Below are positions 2,008-29,435 of a DNA stretch of 39,578 nucleotides, in pieces. Both the position numbers and the translations under genes were made by a program. Position 1 is the stretch's first letter. Every line of letters starts with the position of its first letter. The stretch lies in sequence record NC_019715.1, one strand, 5' to 3'. This DNA comes from Escherichia phage mEp234. The notes under the pieces were generated by a model that did no database searches, was not told the origin of the DNA, and saw only the letters and a list, made by a program, of their open reading frames with translations.

Positions 2008-3281
2008 TGGAAGAACCTAAATACACGATTGACCTGCGAACCAATAACGGCTGGTGGGCAAGGCTGCAGTCCTGGTTTGTCGGCGGGCGTTTAGTCACCC
2101 CAAATCAGGGCTCACAGACGGGGCCTGTTTCGGCCCACGGACACCTGGGCGATTCATCCATTAACGATGAACGGATACTGCAAATTTCGACTGTGTGGCG
2201 CTGCGTGAGCCTGATTTCAACGCTCACGGCATGCTTACCGCTTGATGTCTTCGAAACAGACCAGAATGACAACCGTAAAAAAGTGGATTTGAGCAATCCA
2301 CTGGCGCGACTGCTGCGCTACTCACCGAATCAGTACATGACCGCCCAAGAATTCAGGGAGGCCATGACGATGCAGCTCTGTTTCTACGGTAACGCATATG
2401 CACTTGTGGACCGCAACAGCGCAGGTGACGTGATCAGCCTTCTCCCGCTTCAGTCTGCCAATATGGATGTGAAGCTCGTCGGAAAAAAAGTGGTTTATCG
2501 CTATCAACGCGACAGCGAATACGCCGACTTTTCGCAGAAAGAGATTTTTCACCTTAAAGGCTTCGGATTCACCGGGCTTGTAGGCCTGTCACCCATTGCT
2601 TTTGCCTGTAAATCGGCAGGTGTGGCAGTTGCGATGGAGGACCAGCAGCGAGATTTCTTTGCCAACGGCGCCAAGTCTCCGCAAATCCTCTCAACTGGCG
2701 AAAAAGTGCTAACTGAACAGCAGCGCTCCCAGGTCGAAGAGAACTTCAAAGAGATCGCCGGCGGCCCGGTAAAAAAACGCCTCTGGATTCTGGAAGCGGG
2801 TTTTTCTACATCGGCAATTGGCGTAACTCCGCAGGATGCCGAAATGATGGCGTCCCGAAAATTTCAGGTAAGTGAACTGGCGCGATTCTTTGGCGTACCG
2901 CCTCACCTTGTCGGCGACGTCGAGAAATCAACGAGCTGGGGATCGGGCATCGAGCAGCAGAATCTCGGCTTCCTGCAGTACACCCTGCAGCCCTATATCT
3001 CCAGGTGGGAAAACAGCATTCAGCGGTGGCTTATTCCTGCTAAGGATGTTGGCCGCATTCATGCTGAGCACAACCTCGACGGCCTGCTGAGGGGCGATTC
3101 GGCATCCCGCGCTGCCTTTATGAAGGCAATGGGAGAGGCAGGGCTACGCACCATCAACGAGATGCGACGAACGGACAACCTCCCGCCATTGCCGGGTGGC
3201 GATGTGGCAATGCGCCAGTCGCAATACGTGCCGATCACCGATTTAGGAACCAACAAAGAGCCCCGTAATAACGGGGCTTAA
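2007..3281 (+). CDS. portal protein (HK97 family)
   Basis: 424 aa from ATG 2007, which overlaps the TerL stop (TGATG); track ORF starts at GTG 2004. Position after TerL. Confidence 0.85.
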   Translation: MEEPKYTIDLRTNNGWWARLQSWFVGGRLVTPNQGSQTGPVSAHGHLGDSSINDERILQISTVWRCVSLISTLTACLPLDVFETDQNDNRKKVDLSNPLARLLRYSPNQYMTAQEFREAMTMQLCFYGNAYALVDRNSAGDVISLLPLQSANMDVKLVGKKVVYRYQRDSEYADFSQKEIFHLKGFGFTGLVGLSPIAFACKSAGVAVAMEDQQRDFFANGAKSPQILSTGEKVLTEQQRSQVEENFKEIAGGPVKKRLWILEAGFSTSAIGVTPQDAEMMASRKFQVSELARFFGVPPHLVGDVEKSTSWGSGIEQQNLGFLQYTLQPYISRWENSIQRWLIPAKDVGRIHAEHNLDGLLRGDSASRAAFMKAMGEAGLRTINEMRRTDNLPPLPGGDVAMRQSQYVPITDLGTNKEPRNNGA

Positions 3282-3286
3282 TTTTT
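3259..3286 (+). terminator. stem-loop plus U-tract at portal 3' end (terminator-like)
   Basis: AGCCCCGT-AATA-ACGGGGCT 8-bp stem overlapping the portal stop, followed by TTTTT then ATGGGGG. Confidence 0.4.
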
Positions 3287-3298
3287 ATGGGGGCCGTA

Positions 3299-3976
3299 AT
3301 GCCTGAAATCGTAAAAACGCTGTCCTTCGACGAGACAGAAATCAAATTCACCGGTGACGGTAAACAGGGGATTTTTGAAGGCTACGCCTCTGTTTTTAAT
3401 AACACCGATTCCGATGGCGACATCATTCTGCCCGGGGCGTTTAAAAACGCGCTGGCGAACCAGACCCGAAAAGTGGCGATGTTTTTTAACCACAGGACGT
3501 GGGAACTGCCGGTTGGCAAATGGGACAGCCTGGCTGAGGACGAAAAAGGCCTGTATGTGCGCGGTCAACTTACCCCAGGACACAGCGGCGCCGCTGACCT
3601 AAAAGCGGCAATGCAGCACGGTACGGTTGAAGGTATGTCGGTTGGCTTTTCCGTTGCGAAAGACGATTACACCATCATTCCAACAGGCCGCATTTTTAAG
3701 AATATCCAGGCTCTGCGCGAAATCAGCGTCTGCACTTTCCCCGCCAACGAACAGGCTGGCATCGCAGCCATGAAAAGTGTCGATGGCATTGAAACGATTC
3801 GTGATGTGGAGAACTGGCTGAGGGATTCAGTCGGCCTCACCAAATCACAGGCAGTTGGGCTAATTGCCCGGTTTAAGTCAGCGATTCGGAGCGAGTCCGA
3901 GGGCGACGGAAACGAAGCACAAATAAACGCTCTGCTTCAGAGCATCAAATCTTTCCCTTCTAACTTAGGTAAATAA
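3299..3976 (+). CDS. prohead maturation protease (HK97 gp4-like)
   Basis: ORF 3287-3976; likely start ATG 3299 (MPEIVKT) 5 nt after a GGGGG run; between portal and capsid gene. Confidence 0.8.
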   Translation: MPEIVKTLSFDETEIKFTGDGKQGIFEGYASVFNNTDSDGDIILPGAFKNALANQTRKVAMFFNHRTWELPVGKWDSLAEDEKGLYVRGQLTPGHSGAADLKAAMQHGTVEGMSVGFSVAKDDYTIIPTGRIFKNIQALREISVCTFPANEQAGIAAMKSVDGIETIRDVENWLRDSVGLTKSQAVGLIARFKSAIRSESEGDGNEAQINALLQSIKSFPSNLGK

Positions 3977-24540: not shown

Positions 24541-25509
24541 TTAGTAGGTTATTTTTGTTGCGAATACTTCGCCTTTTACGATGGCTGTTATGATATTTTT
24601 AGCAACATCTTCTGATGCACCAACCTTGATAAGGTCAGCAAGTATTTTGTTATTTACTTCTTTCCGGTGAGCTTTATCCTTTGCTCTACGCTCTTCTTCG
24701 TCCTTGATTCTTTTTTCTTCTGCTATTCTGGCTTGCTCTTTTGCTTCAGCCTCGCGCCGGATTCGTTCTGCCTCCTCCTGTGCTTTTCGGCGTTCTGCTT
24801 CAATTGCCACCTGCTTTTCTCTTTCAGCTCGTTCTGCTGCCTCTTTTGCTTCGCGCTGTGCTCGTTGCTCGGCTTCAATGCGTTCACGCTCTGCACGTTC
24901 CGCTGCGGCCTTAGCTTCTGCTTCTCGCCTTGCTGCTGCTTCAATTTCGGCTTTTGCCTTTGCTTCGGCTTCAGCTCTGGCTTTCTCTTCAGCTTCTCTT
25001 TTTAAGCGTTCTTCATGCTCTCGCTTTTCCTGCTCCGCTTTGAGTCTTGCCTCTTCTCTTTGGCGGTCAAATTCGCGATCCATCAAAATCGCTATTTCAT
25101 GGTCAGACTCAATTTGCTTTGCGAGAGCTTCAGCTGCTGCCTTAGCTTCTTCTTCGGCTTTAATCCGTGCCTGCTCCTCCTCATAATCAGTAAGAGGCTG
25201 ACGCGCCTTGGCTTTCAGCTCATCAAGTCGATCACGCACTGTCTTGCGGTTGGCATCAATTAGCTTTGGAATTTCCTTCAGTTCAGCAACAAGGTCTTTT
25301 CCAAGACCATCGAGATATGTTTTCGTCTGCGCAACTTTATACGCCAGAGAAGCGATCTCCTTTCTGCCCTTTGCCGTTGTGATATCAGGCACAAAGGACA
25401 TAACTTCACGTTCAACCTTTTGGAGAATTTCTTCAATCTGGTCGGCAGACTGAAATACAGTCATTGCATTTGCTTTTTCAATAACAACTAAATCTGTTAC
25501 TTCACTCAT
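24541..25509 (-). CDS. DUF1351/Gp157-like protein with extended E/A/K/R-rich coiled-coil tract
   Basis: 322 aa from ATG 25507-25509 (strong SD GGAGGATAT); N-terminal ~110 aa globular, then ~180 aa of low-complexity EAKAAAE/RREAEAK repeats; family name is from memory. Confidence 0.5.
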   Translation of the reverse strand: MSEVTDLVVIEKANAMTVFQSADQIEEILQKVEREVMSFVPDITTAKGRKEIASLAYKVAQTKTYLDGLGKDLVAELKEIPKLIDANRKTVRDRLDELKAKARQPLTDYEEEQARIKAEEEAKAAAEALAKQIESDHEIAILMDREFDRQREEARLKAEQEKREHEERLKREAEEKARAEAEAKAKAEIEAAARREAEAKAAAERAERERIEAEQRAQREAKEAAERAEREKQVAIEAERRKAQEEAERIRREAEAKEQARIAEEKRIKDEEERRAKDKAHRKEVNNKILADLIKVGASEDVAKNIITAIVKGEVFATKITY

Positions 25510-25521
25510 ATATCCTCCGTC

Positions 25522-25548
25522 AAAAAAATTGCCCTCACACTGGAGGGC
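25522..25548 (-). terminator. stem-loop plus U-tract immediately upstream of DUF1351-like gene
   Basis: GCCCTC-cagtgt-GAGGGC then TTTTTTT on the minus strand, 13 nt before the SD. Confidence 0.45.
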
Positions 25549-25665
25549 AAAGAAGATTTCCAATAATCAGAACAAGTCGGCTCCTGTTTAGTTACGAGCG
25601 ACATTGCTCCGTGTATTCACTCGTTGGAATGAATACACAGTGCAGTGTTTATTCTGTTATTTATG

Positions 25666-25694
25666 CCAAAAATAAAGGCCGCCATCAGGCAGCC
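25666..25694 (-). terminator. stem-loop plus U-tract at 3' end of the 83-aa gene
   Basis: GGCTGCC-TGAT-GGCGGCC (one G:U) then TTTATTTTT on the minus strand; the gene's stop codon lies in the loop. Confidence 0.45.
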
Positions 25695-25936
25695 TTGTTG
25701 TAAATGTTGCAGGTATCAAGTAAGTAATTAGATGGAGCGCCATAAATTATGAATTCATCGTTTGTCGGGTCCATCTCCATCTCTTGGCCTATTGCCATTC
25801 TTGCGTCAGTGTCATCAGCGGCGAAGCATAAAACAGCCCACGCACCCATTGTTTTAAAAAGAACTGCAATTGGCTGTGGTTTTACTGAATTTGCGTTAGC
25901 GCGAAAATCACAAATCGCACTTTCATGAAATTCCAT
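25685..25936 (-). CDS. hypothetical protein (moron-like, between N and DUF1351 gene)
   Basis: 83 aa, SD GAGGTG; bracketed by its own terminator. Confidence 0.45.
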   Translation of the reverse strand: MEFHESAICDFRANANSVKPQPIAVLFKTMGAWAVLCFAADDTDARMAIGQEMEMDPTNDEFIIYGAPSNYLLDTCNIYNKAA

Positions 25937-25994: not shown

Positions 25995-26378
25995 TCACCT
26001 TGCTGTCAGTTGTTTTGATTTCCTGTAGCCTGCCGCGTAAAGAGCTACATTTGGAAGACATACACCAGTTTCTGGTTGCCTATGCCCAAACTCATTCGCG
26101 TACACAATGGCCGCTCTCTCCAGATTGCGTCTGTATTCTTTCTGTTGCCAGATCACGTCCTGTGCCATGAACTTAATTGGCTTAGCGTCTTCTATGCGCT
26201 CAGGCGTTTCGTGAGTACCTTTAGCCTGAATCTGCGCTCTGCTTAGAGTAGGGCGGTGTAATACTTCTGAACTTATTGCTTCTTCGCGGGCCAGTACGCC
26301 GTTAGCTAATGCCTTTGCCTTTAAACGCTCACGACGACGAGAACGTGAATTGCCTTTGAACTGAGTTCTGCGTGTCAT
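25995..26378 (-). CDS. N-like transcription antiterminator (P22 gene 24 type)
   Basis: 127 aa; arginine-rich motif near N-terminus (GNSRSRRRERLKAK); strong SD AGGAGGT; first gene downstream of PL with a boxB hairpin in its leader. Confidence 0.7.
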   Translation of the reverse strand: MTRRTQFKGNSRSRRRERLKAKALANGVLAREEAISSEVLHRPTLSRAQIQAKGTHETPERIEDAKPIKFMAQDVIWQQKEYRRNLERAAIVYANEFGHRQPETGVCLPNVALYAAGYRKSKQLTAR

Positions 26379-26543
26379 ATAGACCTCCTGATGAACTTTG
26401 GTGGTGTGGTAGGTGGGAGACCCATTTCGACCTGTTTCGGCCTACTTCAATTCGGCAATAGTCCCGCAGGCCTCGCCGCTTTACGTGCGACATATTCCCG
26501 TCCATGAACCCTTCACCACACCCCAAAGTTCACTTTGGTTATT

Positions 26544-26558
26544 GCGCTTTGTCAGCGC
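26544..26558 (-). promoter_or_regulatory. nutL boxB hairpin (P22 type)
   Basis: RNA GCGCU-GACAA-AGCGC in the PL leader; the GACAA loop is the P22-type boxB as recalled. Confidence 0.6.
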
Positions 26559-26622
26559 CGTAGATTCATCTCTGAATCGTTGTATATTCACCGCCCTGGT
26601 GAGTAGTGCGTCCTGCTGATGT

Positions 26623-26689
26623 GTTTAGTATCACCGCCAGTGGTATTTATGTCAACACCGCCAGAGATAATTTATCACCGCAGATGGTT
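26623..26689 (-). promoter_or_regulatory. PL promoter with operators OL1-OL3
   Basis: Minus strand -35 TTGACA (26650-26655), 17-bp spacer, -10 GATACT (26627-26632); 17-bp operators TATCACCGCCAGTGGTA (26629-26645), 26653-26669 and TATCACCGCAGATGGTT (26673-26689), matching lambda OL as recalled. Confidence 0.8.
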
Positions 26690-26840
26690 ATCTGTATGTT
26701 TTTTATATAGATTTATTTTTTTGCAGGGGTGTGTGGCTTGGGAGGTGATCGAGAGATCTGAATTGCGATGTTTAGTGAGTTGTATCTATTAATTTTCAAA
26801 TAAATACAATTGGTTATGTGTTTTGGGGCGAACGTGAGGC

Positions 26841-26867
26841 AAAGAAAACCCGGCGCGGTGGCCGGGT
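26841..26867 (-). terminator. Rho-independent terminator ending the cI-side accessory operon
   Basis: ACCCGGC-caccgc-GCCGGGT then TTTTCTTT on the minus strand, 7 nt after the stop of the 141-aa gene. Confidence 0.6.
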
Positions 26868-26873
26868 TGGAGA

Positions 26874-27299
26874 TTATTTTCTAGATGATGTTGGGGACCA
26901 AGGTAACGTTATAGTATCTAACACTGTGTTTTTGAACATATTTTCAAAAACTGTTTTTGTACATACATATACATAATTTTCAAAAAACCAAGCATTTTCA
27001 TTATAAAAATCCTCAGTTACTTCTTCATCGAGGTCACACTCAAATGTTAGTGTCAAGGTAGCCTCTGCCTTGAACAATACATCCTCACCATCATCAAAAT
27101 CTTTTTTATCGCGAGGGAAACCAGTTATCGATGGCTTAACTTCAATAAAGAGCCAATTTCCATCTTCATCTTTTTGAGGAACAACGTGATGCTCAGAAAA
27201 TTTTAAGCTATATTTTCCGCCTTCAGAATTATCACTGTCGTCGATAAAAAGGGAAGAACCCTCGAGATCAAATCCCTTAAAGCGAATTTTATCAAGCAT
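26874..27299 (-). CDS. acidic protein of unknown function, translationally coupled to hicB
   Basis: 141 aa from ATG 27297-27299, overlapping the hicB stop (TGATG); AT-rich coding sequence; no recognisable motif; the track ORF extends to an upstream TTG. Confidence 0.5.
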   Translation of the reverse strand: MLDKIRFKGFDLEGSSLFIDDSDNSEGGKYSLKFSEHHVVPQKDEDGNWLFIEVKPSITGFPRDKKDFDDGEDVLFKAEATLTLTFECDLDEEVTEDFYNENAWFFENYVYVCTKTVFENMFKNTVLDTITLPWSPTSSRK

Positions 27300-27772
27300 C
27301 AATGTGGCACTCCGTTGTCTACTGAAACTTCCCAATAGGTCTCTTCTGTACGTCTACGGGATGAGAAGAAAGTAACTTCTCTAACATCCCTCGGTTTTTC
27401 AAAGTGGTAGTGAACCTCTTTTTTCCCATTAACTGACTCACTGACAGCCTGTTTTACATAATCGTTTAAAGTCATATTCTTAGCTTTAGCAGCTAAATAT
27501 GCTTTTTTATGCAGGGATTCACCTATCCGGATGTTAAACGAACCACTCATTGTCTTATCTGGAGATTTTCCTATCTCTTCACAAGTGGAGAGGTAATCGT
27601 CCACGGCCTCCTCAAAGGCTGCACGGAGTTCTGCAACCGTTGCACCCTCATAAGTGACGAGATCATTTATACATTCGAGTTTTCCATGCATCACCCCATC
27701 TTCAAATGAAATGCTGGAGCTACCATAGTAACCTTTGTATTTCATCAAGTTATTCATGATCATCAATCTCAT
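27299..27772 (-). CDS. hicB: HicB-family antitoxin with C-terminal extension
   Basis: N-terminal MKYKGYYGS...DLVTYEGATVAEL...VDDYL (HicB fold), RHH-like IRIGESLHKKAYLAAKAKNMTLNDYV, then ~45 extra residues; four in-frame ATGs between 27745 and 27772. Confidence 0.7.
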   Translation of the reverse strand: MRLMIMNNLMKYKGYYGSSSISFEDGVMHGKLECINDLVTYEGATVAELRAAFEEAVDDYLSTCEEIGKSPDKTMSGSFNIRIGESLHKKAYLAAKAKNMTLNDYVKQAVSESVNGKKEVHYHFEKPRDVREVTFFSSRRRTEETYWEVSVDNGVPH

Positions 27773-28004
27773 CTAACAGCTGTTTAACTTCTTCCAAGAC
27801 GTACCTTTTGAGGGTGTTTTCAGGATGAGGCTCATGAAAAATGACCAATCTATCAACACGTTGGTTGTAAAATTTACGGCCAGAACCTCGTTTAGCATTC
27901 AAAAGCTTGAAGCCATACTGGTTCATGAGAGTAACGAACTCATCCCAAGTAAAATTTTTGGGTAAGCCGTCTAACTTTGACTTTAGCTTTTCCTTTCTTC
28001 CCAC
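27750..28004 (-). CDS. hicA: HicA/YcfA-family toxin-like protein
   Basis: 84 aa (GTG start); ...FKLLNAKRGSGRKFYNQRVDRLVIFHEPHPENTLKRYVLEEVKQL matches the HicA fold pattern as recalled; directly upstream of hicB. Confidence 0.65.
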   Translation of the reverse strand: MGRKEKLKSKLDGLPKNFTWDEFVTLMNQYGFKLLNAKRGSGRKFYNQRVDRLVIFHEPHPENTLKRYVLEEVKQLLDEIDDHE

Positions 28005-28164
28005 GAAGGATACATCCTCTGTTAAAGGTAGTGCAACTGAAATCTAGTTGCAAGCTATGCTATCTATAGACAAAATGTTTCATTGTTATATCAGAAGATA
28101 CCCGATCTGTTTCACCTTCAACTACTATAATTTGTTATAAGCTATCAACCGGTGGAACTGCGAA

Positions 28165-28263
28165 TTAGCCGCTGGGTGTTGCGTATCCATCGATGATAAA
28201 CCATGCCATAAACCCCATAGCTACGATGAACACCAAGATCGGAAACACTATACCAATTCTCAT
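28165..28263 (-). CDS. 32-aa hydrophobic peptide ORF (candidate small membrane protein)
   Basis: MRIGIVFPILVFIVAMGFMAWFIIDGYATPSG, ATG 28261-28263 with GGGAT upstream; lies in the 363-bp AT-rich spacer between cI and hicA; translated by hand. Confidence 0.3.
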   Translation of the reverse strand: MRIGIVFPILVFIVAMGFMAWFIIDGYATPSG

Positions 28264-28367
28264 GATTTTATCCCTGTCTACCCATGCTTCCTGGGCACCA
28301 GCGGCTCGTTACTCGGCATCACCCTTAATCCGCCGCCCCATGTGTTTGTTGTGATCCGTTGCTGGCC

Positions 28368-29084
<717 letters not shown>

Positions 29085-29091
29085 TTAAATC

Positions 29092-29157
29092 TATCACCGC
29101 AAGGGATAAATATCTAACACCGTGCGTGTTGACTATTTTACCTCTAGCGGTGATAAT
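29092..29157. promoter_or_regulatory. OR3-OR2-OR1 with PRM (leftward) and PR (rightward)
   Basis: OR3 TATCACCGCAAGGGATA (29092-29108), OR2 TAACACCGTGCGTGTTG (29115-29131), OR1 TACCTCTAGCGGTGATA (29139-29155); PR -35 TTGACT 29129-29134 and -10 GATAAT 29152-29157. Confidence 0.85.
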
Positions 29158-29172
29158 GGTTGCATGTACTAA

Positions 29173-29382
<210 letters not shown>

Positions 29383-29389
29383 GTAACAC

Positions 29390-29435
29390 CGCTCTTTTCA
29401 CAATGGACATTCGTCCTACGTCGCTGACAAAGCGA
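29390..29435 (+). promoter_or_regulatory. nutR (boxA plus boxB)
   Basis: boxA-like CGCTCTTTTCA (29390-29400) and boxB hairpin TCGCT-GACAA-AGCGA (29421-29435) just downstream of cro; the loop matches nutL. Confidence 0.6.

Follow-up and report, generated by a model that had tools for sequence, protein, structure and literature searches.

The closest characterised analogue of the locus described here is HigBAC, a toxin-antitoxin-chaperone (TAC) system in a lambdoid prophage of Escherichia coli NT1F31 that is a proven defence and is triggered as a phage tail protein (lambda gpV) titrates its chaperone (Mets et al., bioRxiv 10.1101/2024.02.24.581848). TACs also include a HicAB class (Sala et al. 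2013, PMC3581621), and HicAB-type members have been validated experimentally, with chaperone dependence shown, in Methylomonas methanica MC09 (Bordes et al. 2016, PMC5105189). The antitoxins of TACs carry a chaperone-addiction (ChAD) element, which is a conserved, disordered, aromatic-rich C-terminal extension (PMC5105189; 10.1101/2024.02.24.581848). Here we analyse the genome of Escherichia phage mEp234 (sequence record NC_019715.1; the whole stretch of 39,578 nucleotides is called the window below), in which three adjoining genes, hicA, hicB and hicC, lie between the cI repressor gene and the PL promoter, in the position that phage lambda gives to rexA and rexB.

We read these genes as a HicAB-type TAC, with HicA as toxin, HicB as antitoxin and HicC as chaperone, because HicB bears a ChAD-like tail and because hicA-hicB stand directly upstream of hicC in every locus that we retrieved, and we hold this architecture to be highly probable. 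That the module acts as an anti-phage abortive-infection defence is argued by analogy and seems to us only somewhat better than an even bet; this step gains ground from HigBAC, a TAC that sits in the same lambdoid slot and whose defence activity was shown by experiment (10.1101/2024.02.24.581848). Architecture and defence taken together as one reading come out, on a blended estimate, as reasonably probable. What the locus displays is its gene content, a HicC model with the SecB fold, a conserved HicB tail modelled as disordered, strict synteny, purifying selection, an inverted repeat ahead of hicA and its slot in the immunity region.

Compared with the described systems, the mEp234 module is most like HigBAC, which is likewise prophage-borne, sits in the same slot downstream of cI and encodes, in the same order, a toxin, an antitoxin whose C-terminal extension is disordered and aromatic, and a chaperone of SecB fold. 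The two differ in toxin-antitoxin (TA) family, HigB and HigA being a RelE-type ribosome-dependent RNase and a helix-turn-helix (HTH) antitoxin whereas HicA and HicB are of the double-stranded RNA-binding domain (dsRBD)-like RNase and ribbon-helix-helix (RHH) antitoxin types. They also differ in the ChAD (96 aa with four aromatic short linear motifs, SLiMs, in HigBAC versus a 40-aa tail with K-E-x-H-x-H...W...H in mEp234) and in the chaperone, which was identified as a SecB homologue in HigBAC but is not detectable as one by sequence in mEp234. Trigger and defence have been demonstrated for HigBAC and are proposed for HicABC of mEp234. For the locus, the HigBAC paper (10.1101/2024.02.24.581848) cites Degnan et al. 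2007, and the immunity-region records of mEp234 and phage HK106 (EF120460, EF120461) date from that same year. The M. methanica HicAB-SecB system resembles that of mEp234 in having a HicA, an RHH-type HicB whose C-terminal ChAD measures ~42 aa, and a dedicated chaperone encoded downstream. It is chromosomal in a methanotroph, however, and not in a phage immunity region; its chaperone was found through a Pfam SecB domain, in contrast to HicC of the mEp234 type with no such match in 53 members; and its HicB ends in ...ALEKQYA (deduced from a published primer) where the mEp234 type has a conserved ...H terminus. The M. tuberculosis HigBA1-SecB(TA) system (Rv1955-Rv1957, structure 5MTW) has the same toxin-antitoxin-chaperone order and a chaperone that binds an aromatic-centred ChAD peptide, but it shows only 13% sequence identity, belongs to another TA family, is described as a stress-responsive chromosomal system and has a ChAD ending in a Val-Ala ClpXP degron.

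The three genes all lie on the minus strand in the order toxin, antitoxin, third gene: hicA at 27750-28004 (84 aa, GTG start), hicB at 27299-27757 (152 aa) and hicC at 26874-27299 (141 aa). Overlaps are 8 nt between hicA and hicB and 1 nt between hicB and hicC, the ATG of hicC and the TGA of hicB having base 27299 in common. Related loci were retrieved via the third gene and via HicB and were then searched with profiles, and every locus with complete context (~22 loci, ~15 distinct) keeps the order HicA-HicB-HicC on one strand, with hicA-hicB directly upstream of hicC in the genera Escherichia, Enterobacter, Pantoea, Pragia and Vibrio. This synteny, with a HicB of 152-160 aa, is kept at only 22-26% HicC identity (Pragia fontium, Vibrio sp. 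JC009). A first-pass annotation of the window, made from its letters without database searches, had proposed a translationally coupled third gene, and the three genes are indeed one conserved unit across all retrieved loci; the open reading frames, the 1-nt overlap of hicB with the third gene and the terminator behind it all lie where that annotation had put them.

The third gene encodes an acidic protein, with a pI of 4.36 in the window and of 4.1-4.8 across HicC of the six loci tested. Modelled with AF2 from an 11-sequence alignment, HicC gave one structure (pLDDT 77.8, pTM 0.70) in which four long beta-strands are followed by a long helix. Foldseek against PDB returned 17 matches to this model at E<=0.001, all of them SecB or Rv1957 (TM 0.56-0.69), and in the viral library BFVD the top match was a phage 'preprotein translocase subunit SecB' (TM 0.69/0.72); three structure libraries concur on SecB with a clear gap to other folds. 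At the level of this predicted fold, HicC is a candidate SecB-like chaperone, and it is labelled HicC chaperone, beside HicA toxin and HicB antitoxin, in the 2025 GenBank records of mEp234 and mEp506 (PV340539.1, PV340542.1), the first of which is 100% identical to the window over 21 kb. The earlier view that the third gene belongs to no recognisable family thus gives way to a SecB-like assignment by model fold, though one that no sequence match to SecB accompanies. An exhaustive HMMER search of 1.84 billion cluster representatives found 61 HicC relatives, nearly all of 130-155 aa and none with a bridging annotation, and a word-indexed search with a 53-sequence profile added two more (P0073, P0074) and no Pfam-annotated one.

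HicB is recognised by sequence, as the first-pass annotation had supposed: Pfam HicB (PF05534) matches with 66.9 bits (cut-off 21) over residues 60-109, and PHROG 9151 matches at 5e-55 from residue 6 of the open reading frame, with a weak Arc-like/RHH PHROG match besides. The reading frame is open back to 27772 (27299-27772), and public records disagree on the start, which is placed at 27757 in EF120460 and at 27745 in PV340539/RefSeq, against 27772 by open-reading-frame logic. The real start is probably 27757, which gives 152 aa and the 8-nt overlap with the end of hicA; it is favoured because homologues are mostly 152 aa long (overwhelmingly 148-170 aa) and because the PHROG match begins at residue 6. 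The protein comprises an N-terminal HicB domain, an RHH DNA-binding domain and a C-terminal tail. Its AF2 model (66-sequence alignment) shows a beta-sheet and helix over residues 1-62 and helices at 80-92 and 97-110, and pLDDT falls below 50 at 120-152. The tail itself, residues 113-152 (KEVHYHFEKPRDVREVTFFSSRRRTEETYWEVSVDNGVPH; 27302-27421, minus strand), is predicted to be disordered and is a candidate counterpart of the ChAD element of TAC antitoxins. A tail of 40-44 aa follows the RHH domain in 61 of ~124 aligned HicB homologues and is longer in most others. Within it, conservation reaches at least 90% at H116, H118 and the C-terminal His, most homologues have a Trp some 11 residues short of the end, and aromatic residues cluster as Y117/F119, F130/F131 and Y141/W142. 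Of 66 homologues, 90% or more have His as the last residue (152; window 27302-27304, minus strand), which suggests for this residue a recognition or degron role unlike that of the Ala-Ala/Val-Ala degrons of other TAC antitoxins.

Several results weigh against the TAC reading and have to be set beside the fold and the synteny. None of the genes of the module is matched by a PADLOC model, and for the 141-aa protein Pfam (E<=1), NCBIfam and PADLOC give no match, leaving only PHROG 19522 of 'unknown function'. When 53 aligned HicC family members were compared with Pfam there was no convincing family match, and SecB (PF02556), the domain by which the original TAC surveys recognised the chaperone, appeared in none; phmmer and hmmsearch of PDB for HicC, with 11- and 53-sequence profiles, found no sequence match; and hhalign of HicC with SecB was not significant (E 0.15 with E. 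coli SecB, 0.014 with an 11-species alignment, probability <=3%), the alignment being confined in both runs to the beta4 strand and its surroundings. The other four of the five AF2 models of HicC were poor (~44), and the weak point of the fold call is that it comes from one confident model built on a shallow 11-sequence alignment; the gene context corroborates the assignment. On the antitoxin, the motif K-E-x-H-x-H...W...C-terminal H is unlike described ChADs, and the tail is without the Ala-Ala/Val-Ala ClpX degron of some TACs. HicB homologues of 114 aa and 119 aa were considered as natural tail-less controls and rejected, being cut by a contig end or followed by a HicC fragment at the contig end. 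A literature search found no paper or experiment on the mEp234 HicABC module, and a HicA survey (PMC10865869) and a HicAB review (PMC11594946) leave chaperone-linked HicAB unmentioned.

The missing sequence similarity between HicC and SecB, the four low-confidence models and the deviating tail motif are what one would expect if HicAB were an ordinary two-component TA system and the third protein not an antitoxin chaperone, its beta-sheet-plus-helix likeness to SecB being one of shape only or its model wrong; the third protein could then be an effector, a sensor, a second antitoxin or an anti-defence protein. We consider this improbable. The three structure libraries agree, the top structural match of HicC is specifically a TAC chaperone, and hicC occurs invariably with a HicB that carries a conserved, disordered extension, an association that a TAC predicts and that is not expected of an unrelated neighbour. 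Nor is the missing sequence signal disqualifying, since phmmer with E. coli SecB likewise fails to retrieve Rv1957 even at E<=10, which makes an absent sequence signal normal in the SecB fold family. The first-pass annotation had pointed to structure and profile comparisons of the 141-aa protein and the HicB tail as the way to assess them: on the structural side Foldseek gives SecB and the tail is modelled as disordered, while the profile-profile comparison stays non-significant.

The remaining points on the opposing side concern the toxin. The gene at 27750-28004 had been called HicA-like from the letters alone, and the protein does pass the Pfam HicA_toxin cut-off (PF07927, 32.1 bits, cut-off 27) and matches PHROG 8887 'toxin' at 2.7e-34 with 84 of 85 positions covered. 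Together with HicB this places the pair in HicAB, one of the type II TA families, beside HigBA and MqsRA, on which TACs are built. The catalytic His of characterised HicA proteins is His23 in EcHicA, His24 in BpsHicA and His28 in YpHicA3 (PMC11594946); in a MAFFT alignment of these short, divergent sequences, HicA proteins of HicABC loci have G-S-G-R or G-S-G-S-R-R where E. coli HicA has G-S-N-H23. They share instead a conserved H(E/C)PHP motif, with H57 and H60 in the window protein, and phmmer with HicA against PDB retrieved no solved HicA. HicA toxicity is accordingly uncertain, the canonical catalytic His being absent from the alignment and the Pfam score only 5 bits over its cut-off.

The same lack of the canonical His in the alignment would suit a cassette that has no function at present in mEp234 and hitch-hikes there as decaying or neutral cargo, as would its AT-rich, foreign DNA and its rarity, at least 80% of the query being present in just 6 of 5426 complete E. 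coli genomes. Selection speaks the other way. By the Nei-Gojobori method and against an 82%-identical relative (for hicA, the value is given against locus L018), dN/dS is 0.08 for hicA, 0.02 for the hicB core, 0.20 for the hicB tail and 0.10 for hicC, with 0.01-0.20 as the range for the tail. Ratios of 0.02-0.20 over three intact open reading frames indicate that all three genes are under purifying selection; both the gene architecture and the inverted repeat ahead of it are kept across genera, and one related HicB cluster was found on 684 contigs. Inert cargo is in our view very improbable. The highest dN of the operon falls, in all comparisons, in the hicB tail and hicC, and in HigBAC too the ChAD and the chaperone are fast-evolving (10.1101/2024.02.24.581848).

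The slot that the module occupies can be delimited precisely. BLASTN against lambda (J02459) finds homology at 26588-26868 (89.7%) and 28372-29396 (97.7%) and none between, and because lambda homology ends at both borders, the swapped segment of 1503 bp (26869-28371, minus strand), which runs from the cI stop codon to tIMM, sits exactly where lambda has rexA-rexB. The first-pass claim of accessory cargo in the cI-PL slot is borne out by this gap, and its AT-rich block is seen in a GC content of 0.36-0.42 over 26700-28200 against 0.48-0.51 in both flanks. Upstream lies the lambda-immunity cI repressor (28368-29081, minus strand; 235 of 237 aa identical to lambda cI; Pfam HTH_3 and Peptidase_S24). 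The downstream boundary is formed by the PL promoter hexamers (26627-26655, minus strand, TTGACA-17-GATACT), with the OL operators just upstream of PL on the minus strand (oL1-3 and pL are annotated in EF120460). With RexA and RexB the cargo has position alone in common, there being no lambda DNA match across 26869-28371 and no PADLOC match. The cassette region is 100% identical in phage HK106 and in the 2007 immunity-region records EF120460 and EF120461, and moves between backgrounds: E. coli TC24 and four further genomes have a 99.6%-identical copy (window 26837-28348) behind a Rac-like repressor, and phage mEp506 has a 99%-identical copy behind a different cI. For most copies of the module the gene directly upstream encodes a prophage repressor, of the S24 type or another, and at least six immunity backgrounds are represented.

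Copies are also found elsewhere. In two loci of other lambdoid prophages of E. coli (L011 and L012), a diverged hicA-hicB(158 aa)-hicC(144 aa) lies at 2374-3896 in the nin/Q region, right after a hok/gef type I toxin gene and between hok and DUF968-rusA-Q, so the module uses more than one moron slot. In Vibrio sp. JC009 (locus L006, 1-4438) HicABC is chromosomal, between a cas1-cas2-cas4 adaptation module and flagellin genes, and the cas module has an uncalled gap of ~2.3 kb, presumably a CRISPR array.

Position and TA content also invite an explanation in terms of the prophage itself, in which the TAC would serve prophage maintenance or control, either by addiction, killing or arresting cells that lose mEp234, or by modulating the balance of lysogeny and lysis as proposed for RexAB. 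Stabilising mobile elements is a classical role of the TA systems that these carry; for the phage HicAB of Adephagia (gp90/91) a prophage-maintenance role was proposed and no target phage found (PMC11594946); RexAB, in the same slot, is credited with acting in the switch from the lysogenic to the lytic state (Thomason 2021, as cited in PMC12315714); and the module appears placed to be expressed alongside cI. We nevertheless think this unlikely, if the strongest of the competing explanations. The closest characterised same-slot analogue, HigBAC, is a defence system, one family member adjoins a chromosomal CRISPR-Cas locus outside any recognisable prophage, and integrated prophages are seldom lost by segregation. 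The chaperone and the tail being the fastest-evolving parts, an arms race with invaders fits better than simple addiction. Lambda RexA/RexB for its part shares with HicABC the cI-tIMM position and the cI strand, so that co-transcription in a lysogen is possible, and is likewise accessory immunity-region cargo with an abortive-infection role; there is, however, no kinship in sequence or architecture, RexA being a DNA-binding sensor and RexB a membrane protein.

Ahead of the hicA start by 28-48 nt, at 28032-28052, stands a perfect inverted repeat, TGCAACT-N7-AGTTGCA. Its arms, (T)GCAACT...AGTTGC(A), recur at an unchanged distance (-52 to -30) in 11 of 11 divergent loci from five genera, with loop and flanks varying. 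An RNA hairpin was considered and rejected, the arms being invariant in the 11 loci with no compensatory changes, and for the same reason a sequence-specific DNA site is favoured, most simply an operator of the RHH antitoxin. The repeat is likely to be a HicB operator within the module's own promoter region, as judged from its conservation and placement, although a scan for consensus promoters found no strong sigma-70 site at the repeat. Since the minus strand has no terminator-like site between the cI stop (28368) and tIMM (26868), read-through from PRM/PRE, as for rexAB, is also plausible. An Rfam scan of 26400-28500 gave no match.

These elements suggest a mechanism in which toxicity, chaperone addiction, trigger and defence phenotype are modelled on M. 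tuberculosis HigBAC and on E. coli HigBAC/CmdTAC, and on M. methanica HicAB-SecB as well (PMC5105189). HicA, an RNase-family toxin, would be neutralised by the N-terminal domain of HicB, whose RHH domain would bind DNA, probably at the TGCAACT-N7-AGTTGCA repeat before hicA. The 40-residue disordered, aromatic-rich tail would leave HicB unstable or aggregation-prone unless held by HicC, the acidic SecB-fold holdase made from the translationally coupled third gene. In the lysogenic state, expression would be driven by the operon's own promoter, by PRM read-through or by both, and the three proteins would rest in an inert complex. An infecting phage would then bring abundant unfolded or nascent protein, most likely structural, to compete for HicC; HicB deprived of its chaperone would be inactivated or degraded; and the freed HicA would halt gene expression, aborting the infection.

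Two features that had been counted with the block are better treated as its neighbours. A 32-aa hydrophobic peptide was listed as part of the operon, and the open reading frame is present (28165-28263, minus strand), as a YoaK-family small membrane protein (NCBIfam NF033821 equivalog, 4.9e-15, 54.9 bits with cut-off 32, positions 1-31 of 32; RefSeq annotation agrees). Its gene accompanies the module in only 6 of ~22 HicABC loci, for which reason we rejected it as a core part and regard it as an optional neighbour; it moves with the cassette into the Rac-like and mEp506 contexts and in Pantoea lies beside a DUF333 gene. The intrinsic terminator is present where it was reported (26841-26868, minus strand; 8-bp stem with 6 G-C pairs and a T-run), with a terminator-like hairpin and T-run at 26847-26868. 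It was rejected as a part of the module, since it lies inside the lambda-homologous flank and is annotated as Timm in EF120460 (window 26841-26866); it is the lambda tIMM homologue, at which transcripts of the cI strand end, and belongs to the lambda-like backbone, not to the cargo.

Beyond PL, only short islands of the PL operon match lambda (25523-25701). A 127-aa Pfam N_peptide protein, the N antiterminator, is encoded at 25995-26378 (minus strand), where BLASTN finds nothing homologous to lambda, and it is followed by a conserved hypothetical gene of 83 aa (25685-25936, minus strand) similar to VT2-Sa p20. A further open reading frame of the PL operon (340 aa, 24541-25563, minus strand; 'TolA protein' in PV340539.1) has a long low-complexity stretch rich in Glu, Ala, Lys and Arg, and the strong negative AT skew at 24541-25563 reflects this composition.

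TACs, their HicAB subtype, the slot and the mechanism of defence have all been published before, and the HicC chaperone label stands in the 2025 GenBank records. What we add is incremental: fold-level evidence for that label, a chaperone family invisible to annotation by sequence, the conserved grammar of the tail, an operator-like repeat and a non-canonical HicA motif. Because the chaperone escapes Pfam, NCBIfam and PADLOC, RefSeq calls HicC 'hypothetical' and the locus is labelled as a plain two-gene hicAB, and an inventory of SecB-fold TAC chaperones like HicC is possible only by structure and synteny together. If confirmed, the module would make HicAB the second TA family, after HigBA, shown to serve in the rexAB slot of lambdoid phages as a phage sensor gated by a chaperone, and mEp234, a coliphage that can be cultivated and is genetically tractable, would be the first such phage with a HicAB-based sensor of this kind (the cassette of HK106 is identical). 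The fast-evolving pair of tail and chaperone, the operator-like repeat and the non-canonical HicA motif offer handles on how trigger specificity is encoded in TACs. More tentatively, and as a possibility that we would not bet on, HicC may represent a sequence-orphan SecB-fold clade dedicated to HicAB and spread through repressor-adjacent prophage slots of Enterobacterales, with a new addiction signal (K-E-x-H-x-H...W...C-terminal His), sensing a so far unrecognised phage protein and paired with a toxin whose active site or target may be non-canonical. Were this true, TAC-type defences would be substantially under-counted by current finders.

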